Positions 552 to 44,494 of a stretch of DNA of 64,000 nt are shown here, piece after piece. The notes beneath the pieces were generated by a model that did no database searches, was not told the DNA's origin, and saw only the letters and a program-made list of their open reading frames with translations. Every line of letters begins with the position of its first letter. Position 1 is the stretch's first letter. A program made the translations under genes and the position numbers. Source of the DNA: an uncultured Poribacteria bacterium. GTDB lineage: Bacteria; Poribacteria; WGA-4E; WGA-3G. Location: NCBI GenBank assembly GCA_951813565.1, contig OX638351.1, forward strand, positions 4,480,001 through 4,544,000. The letters are read 5' to 3'.

Positions 552-1085
552 CCACTAATCGTAGAACGTTTGATGACTGCTATTCAACCTGATGAAGCGA
601 AAGGTGAAATCCCGCTGCTGCCTATCCTCAACCGTTATGCACCGATCGGCACATCGGCTGATGTTGACTTTCTCACAGCGCGAACATGTGTAGCAACAGA
701 ACGGAGTCATGTGAATCAGGTAGTACTGGATACAGACACATGGGAACGTGCTGCTAAATTTCGGCTTGAGCAATCTGATGTTGTCCAATGTTACGTGCGG
801 AACGACCATCTCGGACTCGGAATTCCGTATGAATACAACGGTTTTTCTCATCTCTACGAACCAGATTTTATTGTACGACTGACAAATGGAGTCCATCTTG
901 TTTTAGAAATAAAAGGTTTTGAACCGGATCAGGTTCATGCGAAACATGCTGCAGCTAAACGTTGGATAGCCGCAGTGAATAATTGGGGTAAATTGAAAAA
1001 ATGGGAATTTCATGTTTGCCGAGATCCACAATTGCTGAGGGAGGAATTGGCTGAGATTTTTGAGGGTTCAATTACACCTGGTTAG
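552..1085 (+). pseudogene. C-terminal nuclease fragment of type III restriction (Res) subunit; helicase part missing
   Basis: SHVNQVVLDT..WE, YVRNDHLGLGIPY, YEPDFIVRL, LEIKG (PD-(D/E)xK), RWIAAVNN; only ~175 aa, begins right after a repeat element. Confidence 0.75.
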
Positions 1086-1119
1086 TTATAGAAACTTAGT
1101 ATCAATTCCGGAGTAACAA

Positions 1120-2136
1120 ATGAAATTAGCACTTCTCTCCTACAGCCATCACGGACGCAGCATGGCACGCACCGCACAAGCACTCGGACACGAAATCGTA
1201 GGTGTGATGGATGCGGAGCATTCACAACGCGAACAGTTAGCAAATGACTTTCAGTCTCCAGCATTTGATTCTGCAGGCAACTGTCTGGATGCAACCAAAC
1301 CGGACGCAGCACTTGTCGCGGGAAAACATACCGAAATGCCATCTCACGTTCGGGCATGTGTTGACAGACGTATCCCCTATCTTTTGGATAAACCGTTCGC
1401 AGACTGTGCAGATAGGCTGCGTCCTACAGCAAAGGCATCCGAAAAGCATGGCGTATTCAGCGCGCTTGTGCTGCCAAACCGTGTAAGCAGAATCGTGAGT
1501 GTCGTCAAGGAGATGATTGAAGATGGCAGTTTGGGTGACCTTGTGTTATACAATAGCAGATTGAACAATGGTCCACCATCCCGTTATGATCCGACACCTT
1601 CCTACTGGCACAACGATCCGAACATTTCCGGTGGTGGGTGTTGGGCAGTTGAAGCAGCACACGGTATTGATACTTTTCTTCAGTTTGTGGGTAATCAGGA
1701 GATTACGGTGGTTGGTGCGGTGATGTCTAATGCTATGCATAGTCGGGGAGTGGAGGATAGCGGTATCGGTGTGCTAAGGACAGAAGACGGTATCACAGGG
1801 ATTATTGAGTCGGGTTATACCTATCCGTCAGGCAAGCGGGGTGGCGATCACTTCTTCCGATTTATTGGCACAAAAGCATCGGTATTTGAGCAATATGGTA
1901 AGAATGGCGAACCGTTGATTGAAGTTCACACAACAGAAGGTGTGCAGTTCAGCGAGGACATCTCACACGGTGCAAGAATAAAAGGCGTGATGGGTAAAGC
2001 ATTTGACGCTATTCGTGACGGAGGCACATTTGAACCGTCGGTTGTTGATGCTGTGCGGATACTTGAAATTCAGGATGCCGTTTATGCACATGCCCGCCAG
2101 AGCGTGACGACGCACGGTCCGCATCCGATGGGATAA
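1120..2136 (+). CDS. Gfo/Idh/MocA family oxidoreductase
   Basis: Rossmann N-terminus, LLDKPFA (EKP-like), GGGCWAVEAAHGID; RBS ggag. Confidence 0.85.
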   Translation: MKLALLSYSHHGRSMARTAQALGHEIVGVMDAEHSQREQLANDFQSPAFDSAGNCLDATKPDAALVAGKHTEMPSHVRACVDRRIPYLLDKPFADCADRLRPTAKASEKHGVFSALVLPNRVSRIVSVVKEMIEDGSLGDLVLYNSRLNNGPPSRYDPTPSYWHNDPNISGGGCWAVEAAHGIDTFLQFVGNQEITVVGAVMSNAMHSRGVEDSGIGVLRTEDGITGIIESGYTYPSGKRGGDHFFRFIGTKASVFEQYGKNGEPLIEVHTTEGVQFSEDISHGARIKGVMGKAFDAIRDGGTFEPSVVDAVRILEIQDAVYAHARQSVTTHGPHPMG

Positions 2137-2269
2137 AATACGTCCGAAAGATTGACTACATACTTTATTAACAAGAAAGAGGCGCAATGAATTGCGCGAC
2201 TACAAACACTGTTAATGGAAAAAGAGGCGTATAGGAATATTCGTATATCACTATAATGAGGAGTTAAAT

Positions 2270-3232
2270 ATGCCAAATTCGCAAACTGCAAACGTAGAAG
2301 AAATCCTACCAGCAGACTCTAAACTTGAGGAAGTTTTCAGTGACGCACATTTTACGGAGGGACCAACCGTCGCGCCAGATGGCACGGTCTATTTCAGCGA
2401 TATCACCTTCACACATCAAGCTGATATGCAAGCCGGACACATCATGCGATACGATCCTAAAACAGGGGATACCTCTGTTTTTCGATCTCCAAGTGGGATG
2501 TCAAACGGGATGAAGTTTGACGCACATGGACGTTTAGTTGTTGCGGAGGGCGCAGATTTCGGAGGACGACGGATTACCCGAACTGATATGAAAACGGGGA
2601 AAAGTGATATTATCGCAGGTCTATATGAAGGAAAATCGTTTAATTCACCTAATGATCTTACGATTGATGAGCAGGGAAGAATCTATTTTACTGATCCTCG
2701 CTACGTTGGGCATGAGTCTGTAGCACAACCCGTTATGGGTGTCTATCGGATTGATACAGATGGTTCAGTCCATCTCGTCATCGCTGATTCCGGCAAACCG
2801 AATGGTATCGCGGTCTCACCTGATCAGAAAACGCTTTATGTCGGTAGTAACGACAGCGGTTCGTTTCGGGAGATGCCTGATGAATTGCCAACTTGCATGG
2901 GACGGATGGCACTCCTTGCTTACGATTTGTCATCTGACGGGACAGCAACTTTCCGTGAAATGCTCGCTGACTATGCGCCAGAACACGGTCCCGACGGATT
3001 TGAAGTTGATGTGGAAGGTAATCTCTACGTTGCAGTCCGCGATGCAACACGGTTTGGTATTTGTGTTTATGCGCCAGATGGTAAGGAATTGGCGTACATC
3101 AAGACACCGGAATTACCGACAAACGTCGCCTTTGGGCGTGGTGAAGCGAGTAAGGTGCTTTATATCACCGCAGGAGGGTGTCTCTTTAGAATTCGTGTTG
3201 GAAAAGACGGTTATCACCTTCCGCAAAAATAG
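2270..3232 (+). CDS. SMP-30/gluconolactonase/LRE family protein
   Basis: FTEGP, NGMKFD, FNSPNDL, PNGIAVSPD, GPDG..VDVEGN, PTNVAFG motifs. Confidence 0.9.
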   Translation: MPNSQTANVEEILPADSKLEEVFSDAHFTEGPTVAPDGTVYFSDITFTHQADMQAGHIMRYDPKTGDTSVFRSPSGMSNGMKFDAHGRLVVAEGADFGGRRITRTDMKTGKSDIIAGLYEGKSFNSPNDLTIDEQGRIYFTDPRYVGHESVAQPVMGVYRIDTDGSVHLVIADSGKPNGIAVSPDQKTLYVGSNDSGSFREMPDELPTCMGRMALLAYDLSSDGTATFREMLADYAPEHGPDGFEVDVEGNLYVAVRDATRFGICVYAPDGKELAYIKTPELPTNVAFGRGEASKVLYITAGGCLFRIRVGKDGYHLPQK

Positions 3233-3244
3233 AATTGTTCTTGG

Positions 3245-4645
3245 TTAAATGTTGGGATGAAGATTATGCCATGAGGTTGCACTCTCATAAGCGTGCCCAA
3301 CTTGACACAATAGCGGTTCTGACAAATGCTTGCCAACAAACTGAATGCTCAAGGGCAATCCTTCGCTGTTCATACCGCACGGTACAGATAGTGTTGGTGC
3401 ACCGTTGTAGTCAAACGGCGCGGTAAATCGTTGAAACCGCGCAGGTCGTGTTTCTTTTGGTCCGTATAACAGTTCTGGCGTAACTTTGTGCGGTGGTGCG
3501 GACATTGACGGACATACCAACACATCAATATCTTGAAATACCCATCTGAGATGTCCTGTACATTCGGCTCTTAAGTTGTTTGCTTCGGCATATTTAGCCC
3601 CTGTTACCTGCGCGCCCATATCAAGCCACCCTTGGAACCAAGGACCGTATGCATCACGTTGTGAAGGATAGGTAGCTGCATGCGCTGCTACCGCTTCTGC
3701 GGAACAGATTGTTGGCCACGCCAACACATATTCATCCACGTCTGGTAATTGCACATCAACGATTTCAGCACCTAATTCTTCTAAAACTTTCACACCAGCA
3801 CATACCGCTTCGGCAAGTTTAGGGTCAACATCCTTCGTTGCGTAATTTTCGTCAAACCCTATTTTAACTCTTTTGATACCCTTATCTATCCCATCAAGCA
3901 TAGCAGGTACAGGATTGGGCAGAGAAGTTGGATCATTCGGGTCAAAGCCAGCGATTGTCTCAAGGATAATTCCTACATCAGCCACGCTCCGCGTCATTGG
4001 ACCGACATGATCCATCGATTCAGCGAGTGCCAGCACACCGTATCGGCTTACTCTACCCCACGTTGGTTTTATTCCAACAATCCCGCACGCAGCTGAGGGA
4101 AAGCGAATTGAACCACCAGTGTCACTACCGATTGAACCTGAACACAATCCTGCAGCAGTTGCAACGCCAGAACCGCTTGAAGATGAACCTGTCCATCGGT
4201 TTGGATTCCACGGATTGATGGGAATATCAAATTCCGGATGGTAACCGCCCATTGCGCCTTCTGTCAAATTGAGTTTGCCAAGTAGCACCGCCCCCGCGGC
4301 TTCAAGTCTCCCAACAACCGTGCTGTCAAACTCGGGGACATGATTTTGCAGAACTTTCGCGCCGCCCATCGTGCGAACATCCTTTGTAAAACAGAGATCT
4401 TTCACTGCAATCGGGACACCGTGAAGCGGTCCACGATATTTACCTGCTGAAATTTCCTGTTCAGCTTTCTGTGCTGCTGCTATCGCATGGTCTGCCATTA
4501 CTGTGGCATAACTTTTCAACTGGTCGTCAAGTTGTTCAATCCGCTGCAACATAACGGTTGTCAGTTCAACTGGTGACAACTTTTTTGAAGACAGTAATTC
4601 TGCGATTTCGGTAATAGGTTTATAGTGAAGTGGTGTTTCTGACAT
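3245..4645 (-). CDS. Amidase signature family protein (GatA-like amidase)
   Basis: GPLHGVPIAVKD, GSSSGSG, GSDTGGSIRFPS; start set to MSETPLH. Confidence 0.9.
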   Translation of the reverse strand: MSETPLHYKPITEIAELLSSKKLSPVELTTVMLQRIEQLDDQLKSYATVMADHAIAAAQKAEQEISAGKYRGPLHGVPIAVKDLCFTKDVRTMGGAKVLQNHVPEFDSTVVGRLEAAGAVLLGKLNLTEGAMGGYHPEFDIPINPWNPNRWTGSSSSGSGVATAAGLCSGSIGSDTGGSIRFPSAACGIVGIKPTWGRVSRYGVLALAESMDHVGPMTRSVADVGIILETIAGFDPNDPTSLPNPVPAMLDGIDKGIKRVKIGFDENYATKDVDPKLAEAVCAGVKVLEELGAEIVDVQLPDVDEYVLAWPTICSAEAVAAHAATYPSQRDAYGPWFQGWLDMGAQVTGAKYAEANNLRAECTGHLRWVFQDIDVLVCPSMSAPPHKVTPELLYGPKETRPARFQRFTAPFDYNGAPTLSVPCGMNSEGLPLSIQFVGKHLSEPLLCQVGHAYESATSWHNLHPNI

Positions 4646-4666
4646 GTTACGCCTTCTTGATTTCAA

Positions 4667-5524
4667 TTAAGAATTCGGACGACTACGTCCTAACAAACCC
4701 AGCAGACGATCACTTGCATTTTGTAATGCGTCTTCTGGTACAGGCACTCCGTTACACAGACTGAACCGCCAGTATGCCCAATAAGCTGCATACTGAGATT
4801 GTAAAATATAACGGGTTTTGCCCGACAGGTTCGGTGCACCACGATGCCAACATTGTGGGTCCTGCAGATAAATATCACCTGCTTTGCAGAAAATAGAAAC
4901 CGGTTTATTCCCTTCAAATTCGGGATTTTCTTGATCGTTGGGACCTCTGCCTGAATAATGGCTGCCACGGACATATTGAGTCGGTCCTTCCTCAATTGTA
5001 TCAATATCGTTTAGTGCCATCTGAACCGTGAACCACATCACAGGCATCCGTAAGCGAGGATCGTGGCGTGGCATCTCATCGGTAACAGGAAAATGTACCG
5101 ATCCGTCTACATGCCAAGTGCTAATAGAGAGTCCGGGTAGATTACGAAGCACATTCTGACCACAAAACTTGCAGTTTGCCCCGACTATTGCCTCAGCCAA
5201 ACTCAAAATCGGTTCACGAAGCAGCATATCCCGATAGATCGGATCAAGTTCAATCGTATTTCGTAAAATGAAAGGTAATGTTTCACCCGATTCAGCGTGT
5301 GCACCCATCTGGATATATCGGTGGTCTGCAAGTTCAGGGTTTGTCCTTTCAGCAAGTTCTGGGTCTGCGAAGAACGCATCTGTTTTATCTCGTAGTGCAG
5401 TGACCTCATCTTCAGTCAGCACTCCCGGAATATGAACAAATCCATCACGGAAGAATTGTTCGGCGATCTGTGTTGTTTTCTCTTCACTAAAAGGTTTACC
5501 ACTTAGTATTGGACTGTTTTCCAT
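4667..5524 (-). CDS. Phytanoyl-CoA dioxygenase family (Fe/2OG) protein
   Basis: F..DGFV.I, WHVD, GPT.YV.GSH, AGD....D...WHRG.PN. Confidence 0.85.
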   Translation of the reverse strand: MENSPILSGKPFSEEKTTQIAEQFFRDGFVHIPGVLTEDEVTALRDKTDAFFADPELAERTNPELADHRYIQMGAHAESGETLPFILRNTIELDPIYRDMLLREPILSLAEAIVGANCKFCGQNVLRNLPGLSISTWHVDGSVHFPVTDEMPRHDPRLRMPVMWFTVQMALNDIDTIEEGPTQYVRGSHYSGRGPNDQENPEFEGNKPVSIFCKAGDIYLQDPQCWHRGAPNLSGKTRYILQSQYAAYWAYWRFSLCNGVPVPEDALQNASDRLLGLLGRSRPNS

Positions 5525-39285: not shown

Positions 39286-39770
39286 CTATTTCATGATAAC
39301 CATTTTTCGAGTTGCAGTTAAATCAGAAGTTTTCAATTGGTAAAAATATACGCCTGATGCGAGTCGTTCACCCGAATCATTACGACCATCCCAGTAAGCA
39401 GCACGAGATTTGCCAATATAAAACCCAGTTGTTTGGAATCCAAGTTCAAGATGTCGGACAAGATGTCCCGCTGCATCGTAGATGTTGATAGCCACATCGG
39501 AATCTTTAACTAACTGGTAAGGAATCCATGTTTCTGGATTAAACGGATTCGGATAGTTGTTGAATAACGCTGTCCTGCTGGTTTGAGTAAGTCTGGTGTC
39601 AGGTGCAATTCAGCAAATGCTCGGTGAATATCTTGTGCGTTGATTTGGTGCTGTAGCGTCCGAATCAATTTGCCATCTACATCACGAACTTCAATCATCA
39701 AAACATCACCAGCTGAAACAACTGGGTTTTGATTGGTATCTGCCCAGACAGCATGTGCTTTGTATGTATT
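39286..39770 (-). pseudogene. C-terminal fragment of secreted protein with FlgD/T9SS-A-like domain, frameshifted
   Basis: AVWADTNQNPVV...; LFNNYPNPFNPETWIPYQL...AAYWDGRN..GERLASGVYFYQL..RKMVIMK; -1 shift near 39575; no start codon. Confidence 0.8.
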
Positions 39771-39832
39771 TAAACGTGAGTTTGATAATTAGACCCAAAT
39801 GTAGATGTCCGTTGGGTAGAGCGAAGCGAAAC

Positions 39833-40224
39833 CCATAACTGTCAACTTAAGAAAAAATGCTGGATATTCTCTTGTGGGAGGGGTTTTTAACCCCGATTTT
39901 GTGAGTCTTATAGTAAAATCCGAAAATATGTTCACATTTCAATGAACAGCAATCCCCACACGCTTGCGCTGGCGAGGTTTCCTAACCTCGCAAATGTAAA
40001 GGTAATTGTGATTTTTACTATAACTTGTAAAATCGGGGTTAAAAACCCCGATTTTCTTCTGTAGGAGCGACCTCCCGGTCGCGAGCTGGAGCTCGCTCCT
40101 ACAGAATGTCCGAGGCGACAAGTCATGGCGAATACCACGCGTATTCGCCCAAGTGCGCTTGGCGTTGATTTGGCAATGAATTGCGCGACTACAAACGCTT
40201 TTTTTCTTAAATTGACAGTTATGG
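39833..40224. mobile_element. Composite MITE with 25-bp terminal IRs (TGTCAACTTAAG family) containing nested palindromes and MITE
   Basis: ccataactgtcaacttaagaaaaaa / ttttttcttaaattgacagttatgg (1 mismatch). Confidence 0.7.
39909..40022. mobile_element. 114-bp TATAGTAAAAT MITE (inverted copy of 23214-23327)
   Basis: Sequence similarity and IRs; sits in loop of gggtttttaaccccgatttt/aaaatcggggttaaaaaccc palindrome. Confidence 0.75.
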
Positions 40225-40472
40225 AGCGGTTAGGAAACCGCTCCTACCGTCCGGAAAATGCGATAAATCCCGTTAATTTGGTATAATAACTGTATTTTCA
40301 ACTTCGGTTTTGAGTGCGTTGAGAATAGATGAAAAACGTGGCGCGTTTTCGAGTGCCTCAATACCGCCTTCCATGTCTGCGGCGTGGAGGAGTTGAAGTG
40401 TAAAATCTTGTGGAGTTTCTTGCGAGTTTAAATCTACTTCATTATCTTGAGAAAAGGCGGGAGTAAGAAAAA

Positions 40473-40770
40473 GTCATAGTGACCCACTACCTAAAGGCAG
40501 GGGCTTGTGCTTCGTAGCAGTTAGCGTTTCCGAAGAAGCGTCTTACATCTGCTCCACAGTGGCTGCTAAGCCAGCCACTTGCCCGAAGGCAACTTATTAT
40601 TTTTGACACGTGATTTTTCAAGCGGGTGAGCATTTTTCAATGCGTCTACCCTAAACGTGCAATAGATGTTACAAAGAACTTTAGCAGTATTGAATCGCAA
40701 GGCTTTTACCTGATTGTTTCACTGCCGAGCGGTCTACCACCACATCAATCAGAACCGATGCCGACTGCTA
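40473..40770 (-). ncRNA. Putative ~300-nt structured RNA ending in TnpB omegaRNA/reRNA-like 3' region
   Basis: Internal promoter; stems with GAAA and UUCG tetraloops; GTGGAG..GTAAGAC..GAAGCA.AAGCCCC 3' motif like tnpB right ends. Confidence 0.6.
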
Positions 40771-40775
40771 AAGAC

Positions 40776-40804
40776 AATATATCAAATTTTGGTGAAAGTG
40801 TCAA
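40776..40804 (-). promoter_or_regulatory. Near-consensus sigma70 promoter inside the PATE
   Basis: TTGACA-N17-TATATT on minus strand. Confidence 0.7.
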
Positions 40805-41195
40805 GGTTTTTTTGACACATAAACTGCTGAGCTGTCTACATCCCCTACCTAAAGGCAGGGGGTTTGACAGGGAGTGCTAAAACAGAAATTGAAAGAACAA
40901 CATACGTTAGAATAGTGACTCTCTTATTATACATCAGCAAATTCTCTCCTAATTCATCAAATCAAGTTTATAACAATTTTGGCAAACCTCTATATAGAGG
41001 CTTGAATATGGCAAAATTATGATACTTCAAAATTGTTGCAGGCTACTGCCACTATTTTGACTTTTTTGTGTTTATAGGAAGATGTATTTAGTATTGGAAA
41101 AGGACGTTTATAGTTCTTATAAAAGGAAATGTGTTTGTAGCATTCAGAGGGCACCTCACCCTGCAATCATATTGTTTGAGAATAATTCTAAATGC

Positions 41196-43367: not shown

Positions 43368-44207
43368 TTAAGACAAGTTTTTTTGCTCAAATTCCACAGG
43401 TGTCAAATACCCTAACGCTGAATGAGGGCGTTTGTGATTATACACTTGCGTAATAAAATGCCCAATGCGGGCTCTCGCTTCGTGGATGTTCTCATAGGCG
43501 TTGAGATGAACTTCTTCTTCCTTGAGCGTGCGGATAAGTCTTTCAGCATATCCGTTCTCCCAAGGACACCCTCTTCGGGCGACTGAAATCTCTATCCCAT
43601 GATACCTAAGCAGTGAGATATACGCATCTGAAAGATACTGAACGCCTTGATCAGAATGATGGATCTCTGGAACACTTTGACATAATGCTGTCTCTAAGGG
43701 TTTCAACGCCAGAGATTGCGTCAAGTGTCGACTGATATGCCACCCCCTGATCATGCGAGTGAAGACATCCATGAGCAGACAAACATAGATGAAGTGTCCT
43801 TTGAGACGGACGTAGGTAATATCGCCTACCCAGACCTGATCACATCGGGAGACATCAAGGTTTTCAAGGCGATTACCCCAGGGACGCACACCCGCAACGG
43901 ATGTCGTGGTTTGACAGACACGTTTGACAGAAACCGAGAGGTTGGCGGATTTCATCAATCGGGCAACACGCTTATACCCGATGGTGTATCCGCCACGCAC
44001 TAACAACTGTGTGATACGTCTATATCCGTATGTTGGATATAGCAAAGATAACTTCTCTATTTCATCCCGGAGGCCCGCTTCACACGGGTCCTGCTTGGGG
44101 TGATAATAGAGATTGCTTCGGTTGAAACCGAGCGTCTCACATATCTGCCGAACCGAAAAGTCTATCCGTAATGCTTCAACCATTTCTCGCTGCTCCATCG
44201 GGGTCAA
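43368..44207 (-). CDS. IS3 transposase OrfB (rve DDE integrase domain)
   Basis: YGYRRI, WVGDITY, HHSDQGVQY, WENGYAER, YNHKRPHSALGYLTP. Confidence 0.93.
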   Translation of the reverse strand: MTPMEQREMVEALRIDFSVRQICETLGFNRSNLYYHPKQDPCEAGLRDEIEKLSLLYPTYGYRRITQLLVRGGYTIGYKRVARLMKSANLSVSVKRVCQTTTSVAGVRPWGNRLENLDVSRCDQVWVGDITYVRLKGHFIYVCLLMDVFTRMIRGWHISRHLTQSLALKPLETALCQSVPEIHHSDQGVQYLSDAYISLLRYHGIEISVARRGCPWENGYAERLIRTLKEEEVHLNAYENIHEARARIGHFITQVYNHKRPHSALGYLTPVEFEQKNLS

Positions 44208-44494
44208 CTCAAGTAAGTTGAGGCTTTTTTTTGGATGTCAAGTGCCAGGGTCAACCGCCCAACGAGTTGCTCAAGTTGGGCGATCCGATCCGCAGAGGCA
44301 TCAGACTGTTTATCAGCGGGTTCAAAGAGGGTCGCCGCATTTTCAAGAAGCTGTCGCTTCCACTTTGAAAGTTGTTCATCGCTGAGGCTATGTCGCCGAC
44401 ACACTTCTGCTTGGGAACTTTGACCGCTCAGTGCCTCAAGAACAACTTCGGCTTTAAACTCGGGAGTGAAGTTTCTTCGTTTTCGTTTCGCCAT
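44204..44494 (-). CDS. IS3 transposase OrfA (HTH_Tnp_1)
   Basis: RRNFTPEFKAEVV, QLSKWKRQ, LEQLVGRL. Confidence 0.92.
   Translation of the reverse strand: MAKRKRRNFTPEFKAEVVLEALSGQSSQAEVCRRHSLSDEQLSKWKRQLLENAATLFEPADKQSDASADRIAQLEQLVGRLTLALDIQKKASTYLS

Follow-up and report, generated by a model that had tools for sequence, protein, structure and literature searches.

How can a guide RNA that is made without its tnpB mRNA survive, and how does it find a nuclease? This question is raised by a short element in the window, the stretch of 64,000 nucleotides from an uncultured Poribacteria bacterium analysed here. The initial annotation had read the span 40453-40880 as an ORF-less IS200/IS605 element of 404 bp that supplies a guide to a TnpB-like protein in trans. 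This span corresponds to the element together with its target and its guide.

The element, its ends, and its copies

The element itself lies at window positions 40876-40473 on the minus strand and is 404 bp long. No ORF longer than 48 aa from ATG is present on the element strand, and no similarity to TnpA or TnpB was found in the interior. The left end (40842..40876, minus strand) consists of the DNA guide AAAC (40865-40862) and a subterminal hairpin (40861-40842), and shares 94-98% identity with the corresponding ends of tnpB and tnpA-tnpB elements in the same genome. The target tetranucleotide TTAG (40877..40880, minus strand) is host sequence and stays in the host. It is the TnpA insertion site and the predicted TnpB TAM. 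At the right end, the DNA guide CAAG (40507-40504, minus strand) corresponds to the terminal TGAC (40476-40473, minus strand), the last bases of the element. Both guide assignments had been proposed from the window, and the rule behind them covaries across relatives: AAAT is found with TTAA, AAAC with TTAG, AAAA or AAGA with TTAT, and GAGA with TCAT. The predicted target is present at 69 of the 81 left ends whose guide could be called; six further left ends had no call. TTAG precedes 29 of 30 left ends of the same type as that of the window element, and the positions further out are variable. Ends shared with an autonomous TnpA element (Y1_Tnp) and the guide/target pairing identify the element as a gene-less IS200/IS605 element (PATE).

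The element has subterminal palindromes, no terminal inverted repeats, and no target duplication, and empty alleles show a clean TTAG junction. As described for the homogeneous PATEs of Haloquadratum (Dyall-Smith et al., PMC3119063), which likewise lack terminal inverted repeats and target duplications, carry near-terminal palindromes, and show over 90% identity among copies, the element is too short to encode a transposase. The Haloquadratum PATEs are presented there as deletion derivatives, whereas the interior here is a conserved RNA unrelated to tnpA and tnpB.

Five copies without a single difference, all after TTAG, are present in the genome (G000; 5.43 Mb in one contig), and one diverged copy (73%) is found at G000:5295840. 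The identical copies occupy unrelated sites, relatives hold empty alleles, and other samples show other flanks. These observations show that the element has moved recently. TnpA for its movement is likely supplied from elsewhere in the genome. There are five tnpA matches in the genome, two of which lie behind a TTAG left end almost identical to that of the element. In addition, a collapsed element of ~50 bp at G000:918764 consists of fused right and left ends, as after a deletion between near-identical hairpins.

Each copy was expected to add a new guide, and the five identical copies indeed have five different guides, each from its own 3' flank. The predicted 16-nt guide of the window copy (40457..40472, minus strand) is flanking host DNA. 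No TTAG-adjacent match to it elsewhere in the genome is better than 4 mismatches in 16. For the five guides, one site with 4 mismatches in 16 was the only self-target with at most one mismatch in the seed.

The window copy has landed in a gene, close to the start of that gene. The interrupted gene (40283..40933, minus strand) encodes a signal peptide and the start of a 5'-nucleotidase-like protein. The empty TTAG junction is found in three relatives (G122, G028, and G029) within an ORF of over 600 codons, and the Pfam domain 5_nucleotid_C is present in an intact relative (L249). Exact removal of the element was claimed to restore the host frame. It does so, and the relatives carry the same empty junction, but the restored frame in the window is only 83 aa because the host gene is also broken further downstream, near 40283. 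Short high-copy palindromic repeats are clustered at 39800-40284, where the middle of the nucleotidase-like gene is expected, with very high depth in run X17. A remnant of a C-terminal sorting domain follows at 39286-39495. At 43368-44494, there are two ORFs of 96 and 279 aa, which we take to be an IS3-family transposase pair. At G000:4700826, another copy lies close to the start of an ORF of over 330 codons and interrupts it; like the window copy, it is in sense orientation. Among 39 such elements, a long ORF is split by two, a same-strand host start lies within 80 nt after the right end in three, and a divergent start lies at the left end in 11; these are raw counts without a null expectation.

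The omegaRNA core and its candidate partners

The last part of the element (40473..40578, minus strand) is a TnpB omegaRNA core, with 69-78% identity to tnpB-element right ends of the genome. It consists of stem 1 (40578-40559), with a loop that pairs to the end of the element, stems 2/3, and the right-end hairpin (40503-40483). A UUCG-capped hairpin (40579..40592, minus strand) stands directly before the core, and a hairpin of different sequence takes this place in relatives. The UUCG hairpin and the stem at 40578-40559 had both been annotated correctly. Covariation across copies, expected of a functional guide RNA, was found in an alignment of 26 of the 28 non-redundant gene-less elements; L017 and L120, which are damaged or carry an insert, were left out. 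Over the last ~107 nt, 95.7% of cells are paired, and 13 of 25 pairs change on both sides, a value reached by 5 of 500 shuffles. Pairing reaches 87% in the loop-to-end pseudoknot when misaligned ends are scored as unpaired. The variable guide follows directly after the right end, and the TAM can be deduced from the left-end target. No terminator was found after the right end.

This architecture agrees with the ISDra2 omegaRNA as described in PMC10097598: there, too, a 16-nt guide comes after a core of ~110 nt that is built from stem 1, a loop-to-end pseudoknot, stems 2/3, and a right-end hairpin. The functional scaffold of ISDra2 is given there as the last 116 nt. The 5' extension of ISDra2, according to the same source, overlaps the tnpB coding sequence and is disordered and dispensable, whereas the corresponding part here is a conserved non-coding fold.

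An IscB omegaRNA (HEARO) was also considered, with a HEARO fold and a 5' guide on the opposite strand as the arrangement looked for. This assignment was rejected. The Rfam model RF02033 matches only one other locus in the genome, R1 (one of two covariance models of the module described below) has no match there, and the elements with the same ends encode TnpB. Separately, L001 (G000:C1:2828883-2832124) carries an IscB-like gene of at least 479 aa with RRXRR and HNH, a weak HEARO match (56 bits) directly upstream, and an adjoining CRISPR array of more than 20 repeats. This arrangement suggests a CRISPR-associated IscB locus.

Elements with the same ends in the genome carry TnpB or both TnpA and TnpB. 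There are 36 full-length TnpB ORFs, 35 of them with all three RuvC motifs and 18 behind a TTAG left end, and the candidate TnpBs carry the D-E-D motifs. The TnpB families correspond to targets: family a (370 aa) to TTAG/TTAA, family b (373 aa) to TCAT, and a third family to TTAT and a different right end. A family-a TnpB gene lies at G000:228805-229914, and a family-b one at G000:1844010-1845128 on the minus strand. This correspondence mostly holds in relatives, with a few exceptions among the 52 right ends listed. The expectation of genomic tnpA and tnpB genes with the same ends thus held, but the omegaRNA of the window element recurs in none of the TnpB elements of the genome. The best is 78% identical (family b, TCAT), and identity to the TTAG elements of family a is 69-72%. 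The window omegaRNA is a mosaic, closer overall to family b than to family a. Its stem 1 resembles that of family-a elements of the genus (L309 and L314) and of one b-like element (L217). A 27-nt stem-1 pattern occurs at 20 places in 10 of 101 genomes; 19 of these places belong to elements with the module and the other to a tnpB element. Because of this mosaic structure, it is the target that suggests the partner: by TTAG, it would be a family-a TnpB. Co-occurrence does not discriminate: within the two genera, 27 of 28 genomes with the module and 21 of 26 without it have TnpB. One genome (G017) has a decayed copy of the module and no TnpB at E<=1e-60.

The central idea of the initial annotation, an RNA-only element which supplies a guide to TnpB in trans, is plausible and already known. 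Meers et al. (bioRxiv 10.1101/2023.03.14.532601 / PMC10055086) describe PATEs of Geobacillus stearothermophilus which encode omegaRNAs that need TnpB in trans. Altae-Tran et al. 2023 (PMC10691335) describe standalone omegaRNAs, mobilised without effector or transposase, which work in trans. The G. stearothermophilus PATEs, as reported, share with the window element gene-less IS200/IS605 ends, a TAM equal to the TnpA target, and a right-end omegaRNA, and their retention is explained by donor-joint cutting. Their description, Extended Data Fig. 2e and supplements aside, contains no structured 5' module, promoter swap, or chassis exchange such as found here. Likewise, an additional conserved 5' RNA domain is present here and is not mentioned for the standalone omegaRNAs in the part of PMC10691335 consulted.

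The conserved module ahead of the omegaRNA core

The interior had been seen as scattered hairpins. This view overlooked a conserved RNA of ~165 nt with two covarying pseudoknots, which extends from the predicted transcription start. Domain 1 (40661..40769, minus strand) is supported by covariation in alignments A1 and A3. It comprises P1 (40768-40760 with 40703-40697), P2 (40752-40746 with 40716-40710), the P3 hairpin (40743-40729), pseudoknot 1 (40726-40718 with 40694-40683), an optional P4 hairpin (40679-40668) which is absent in some relatives, and pseudoknot 2, formed between the loop at 40736-40733 and 40666-40663. Domain 2 (40606..40660, minus strand) is a long hairpin with internal loops (P5-P7). 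The hairpin annotated at 40624-40651 exists, but its supposed GAAA loop is a six-base UGAAAA loop which varies in relatives and is not a GNRA tetraloop.

The final structure of the module has 44 pairs. In an alignment of 43 of 44 non-redundant sequences (L027, which has a duplication, was left out), 97.2% of cells are paired and 31 of the 44 pairs change on both sides, as high as in none of 500 shuffles; these counts ignore the tree and are raised both by the division of the sequences into two genera and by the derivation of the structure from the same alignment. Slid controls gave 28-45% pairing. Helices 9 and 10 of domain 2 are paired in 98% and 92% of cells, with 8 of 14 pairs changed on both sides. 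An unsupervised covariation scan recovered the helices drawn by hand, with both pseudoknots among the top pairs, and added two pairings, one extending pseudoknot 1 and the other defining pseudoknot 2. Distant variants outside the alignment show, by eye, independent compensations in pseudoknot 2 (L002, L196, and L208) and in P1 (L204 and L208). The minus strand of the element is more stably folded than expected by chance (z -4.66, 0 of 100 shuffles), with z -2.54 for the plus strand. Nested folding of domain 1 alone is no more stable than shuffles (z -0.17) and does not recover the domain, so its fold rests on covariation. The unpaired invariant core of the module is UC, AU-N-GGUU, and GUAAAAG.

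Scans of the region and eight related loci gave no Rfam 15 match over the interior at E<=1 or at E<=10, so that catalogued ribozymes, riboswitches, and IS605-associated motifs have no covariance-model match here. To our knowledge, and compared by topology only, the module is unlike HDV-like, twister, and group I cores, SAM-IV, guanidine-I, the 5' end of group IIC introns, tmRNA pk1, and bridge RNA. It was not found in the literature as searched by title or abstract start; supplements and figures might add to this. A group I intron or IStron was rejected; there is no Rfam intron match at E<=10, and the module starts ~105 nt inside the element, behind a promoter. The resemblance to IStrons, which combine a group I intron with IS605/IS607 (PMC10690162, PMC4227781), is a large structured RNA placed before the omegaRNA within IS605-type ends. 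Unlike IStrons as described in those sources, the module starts at an internal promoter rather than at the left boundary, and the element has a terminal C and is far shorter.

The interior occupies the usual slot of tnpA/tnpB, behind a homologous promoter, and might therefore be decayed coding sequence of these genes or the remnant of a tnpB leader. This origin is scarcely credible and largely refuted. The module profile gave a best E of 1.1 against 23 tnpA/tnpB loci, and TnpA and TnpB matched the interiors only over the C-terminal 9-10 residues, those which overlap the omegaRNA. None of 124 loci has a tnp gene within the element; the single nearby match, at L030, is a separate element. Compensatory changes occur throughout the module. 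That the interior is not merely decayed tnpB had been set as a condition for the guide-cassette idea, and both profile and translated searches agree with it. Nor is the module found upstream of tnpB, as the profile and the models have no match in tnpB leaders. The tnpB genes in this genome have short structured leaders (by eye); these close their pseudoknot inside P1, whereas the module closes it outside P1 (by eye). As a separate observation, tnpB genes of several families (G000 at 1844010, 159990, and 5119186; L217) have pseudoknotted leaders of 70-95 nt which close beside the ribosome-binding site. A translational control element is possible there.

The annotated sigma70-type promoter, TTGACA-17-TATATT, is present at 40776..40804 (minus strand), with 11 of 12 consensus positions, a TG extension, and a predicted start near 40769. 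A single site of this kind is not rare by itself, because three promoter-like sites were found in 950 bp versus 2.0 in shuffles. The promoter region is homologous to that of a tnpA-tnpB element (79% over 40778-40880). Among 95 flank-distinct insertions, that is, those with enough flank, some of them at the same site in related genomes, loose patterns called 65 sigma70-like and 25 ECF-like promoters and left 5 uncalled. The latter type, AAAC-N15-19-CGTCT, is labelled ECF-like by its resemblance to the ECF consensus. The promoter ends 4-9 nt before the module in all called relatives.

The available sequencing runs are assembled contigs; 13 of 21 are on record as RNA, and eight were compared with the element. 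Contigs from X1-X3 cover the entire element and extend into the flanks, as DNA would, with the element at other flanks. In X7, a 297-nt contig of a related copy covers 40473-40756 at depth 17, with depth 3.5 upstream. A contig of a related copy in X11, from a different study, stops at 40752. The stops near the predicted start in X7 and X11 are a weak hint of transcription. A contig in X5 passes the predicted start into the left end, and X15 covers the module at depth 3 only, so that its uncovered parts prove nothing. In four RNA runs, summed depth is far higher at the omegaRNA end (945-5322) than at the left end (0-19), unlike in X17; these sums include all family members and not this element in particular.

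TnpA needs the right-end hairpin and the DNA guide in any case, and the RNA contigs give no direct evidence of expression. The omegaRNA part could thus be an inert relic of an element spread by TnpA only, with the interior fold relevant, if ever, as single-stranded DNA during transposition. We consider this quite improbable. Stem 1, stems 2/3, and the pseudoknot lie beyond the TnpA hairpin and yet covary, the module begins at the predicted transcription start under two promoter types, and the UUCG loops and many G-U pairs point to RNA.

Covariance models detected the module in 49 (R1) and 48 (R2) of 150 genomes of the phylum sample, with the best 19-25 candidates scored per genome; it was not found in the 20 genera other than g1 and g2. 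A DNA search gave 41 of 151 genomes, four of them by 20-30-nt matches only, and a GTDB pattern scan of 40 of 64 parts gave at least 117 stretches. R1 scored strongly at 8 of 73 loci, including two metagenome contigs and three named Poribacteria, and at none of 11 viral sequences. Both ends are present in 85 of the 95 insertions, the right end only in 6, the left end only in 3, and neither in 1.

The module precedes four types of omegaRNA and end: RE1a in 47 insertions, RE1b in 4, RE2 in 25, and RE3 in 16, with none in 3. The module tree (115 columns, with many open forks) needs 11 changes of type compared with a minimum of 3, and its starred branches force at least five for RE2 and four for RE1a. 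Of 86 elements with a left end, 81 have a target that agrees with their omegaRNA type (targets by eye), five are damaged, and none is mixed. The gene-less elements follow the same rule as the tnpB elements. This match could come from TnpA end specificity or from shared descent, and not from TnpB. Given its fixed place at the start, the four omegaRNA/end types, the type changes, and the target match, the module behaves as a cassette at the transcription start that stands in for the genes of different IS605 families.

Each of the 19 gene-less omegaRNA elements found with a left end in this genome has a large insert, designated X (6), Y (9), Y-like (3), and Z (1). Family Y (L004 and L005; G000:247009, 365561, 611454, 2994597, 3902100, 4155803, and 4973348) has nine copies of ~410 bp; ahead of the omegaRNA, these carry a structured insert of another kind, and no promoter is obvious. 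L004 and L005 have no Rfam match. The long form of the Y insert starts with GUGCG/GUGCR, which we take to recall the 5' ends of group II introns. Three longer Y-like elements (G000:926328, 2324387, and 4013735) have RE2 ends. The insert of Z (L003, G000:963510-963961, ~450 bp) begins, by eye, with a pseudoknotted tnpB-type leader. In L044 and L093, a Y-type element is inserted into an X-type element just after pseudoknot 1. L030 (G039:C1:3446219-3446361) is a short variant with domain 1 and an RE2 end, without the omegaRNA core, and adjoins a tRNA-like gene.

Proposed role of the module

We propose that the element is a gene-less PATE, moved by TnpA, whose RNA of ~310 nt combines a 3' guide for a borrowed TnpB with a predicted double-pseudoknot 5' module that protects the guide and presents it. 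This model as a whole has about an even chance of being right. One RNA of ~310 nt is very probably transcribed from ~40769 through the right end. By analogy with known systems, TnpA and TnpB would both be used in trans. The RNA would probably be loaded on the family-a TnpB (370 aa) and trimmed at its 5' side, after which TnpB would cleave the TTAG+guide donor joints left by excision, and recombination would restore the element. In the account of Meers et al. (PMC10055086), the element excised by TnpA is restored after TnpB has cut the donor joint. TnpB is also reported to trim the 5' part of its precursor, and pairing with the mRNA can inhibit the guide (PMC10278001).

The module may act in cis as a self-folding leader, which hides the 5' end and preserves the guide until it meets a TnpB, in place of the tnpB mRNA on which an omegaRNA is normally carried; we put this step a little short of an even chance. 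Paired 5' ends slow bacterial RNA decay. Three features suggest the leader: the constant position of the module at the predicted transcription start, the pairing of its first bases, and a weak tendency to avoid pairing with the omegaRNA. In 15 of 16 homologs, the predicted pairing of the first four bases exceeds that in shuffled sequences. Cross-pairing between module and omegaRNA is below shuffles in 12 of 16 homologs, with the window copy above (31.9 vs 23.2), in folding without pseudoknots.

The same RNA, with a strong-consensus promoter, several copies, and a mosaic omegaRNA without an exact cognate TnpB, might instead be a decoy or competitor. The knotted module would then resist trimming or beat the cis omegaRNAs, soaking up TnpB more than directing cleavage. 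A decoy has no need of target and omegaRNA types matched in 81 of 86 elements or of an end pseudoknot retained beside the guide, and this alternative is highly improbable.

The unpaired invariant core and the two pseudoknots are more than protection of a 5' end needs, as a simple hairpin would protect. The leader model leaves this core unexplained, and therefore an independent function stays alive. The module might be an RNA functional in its own right, such as a ribozyme, an RNA that binds a ligand or protein, or a passenger from which the host profits. It would ride on omegaRNA PATEs and be released by TnpB 5' trimming, with the guide just holding the vehicle in place. It swaps chassis repeatedly irrespective of the omegaRNA type, has its own promoter, exchanged for an ECF-like one in 25 of 95 insertions, and is retained as domain 1 in L030 without the omegaRNA core. 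The reported trimming of omegaRNA 5' ends by TnpB (PMC10278001) would provide the release. Nevertheless, no fixed host locus was seen, 91 of 95 insertions keep the right end and three of the other four keep the left end, the distribution is patchy (49 of 150 genomes), and there is no Rfam match. We regard this reading as unlikely. A more specific form, in which the module is a double-pseudoknot ribozyme or a ligand or protein switch that moves as a cassette among TnpB transposon families, replaces their genes, and times nuclease loading, with an ECF sigma factor involved in some lineages, would make the element an RNA-only parasite with its own active part. This form is distinctly unlikely.

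The proposed protective leader would bear on the role of standalone omegaRNAs, which is called unknown in PMC10691335. PATEs and omegaRNAs of these kinds are already in print; the new part is the conserved double-pseudoknot module before the guide. One 5' module before four omegaRNA types, with natural variants for every helix, offers a direct test. As a stabiliser, the module would be a natural, portable means to boost TnpB guide RNAs; as a catalyst or switch, it would represent a new RNA class.
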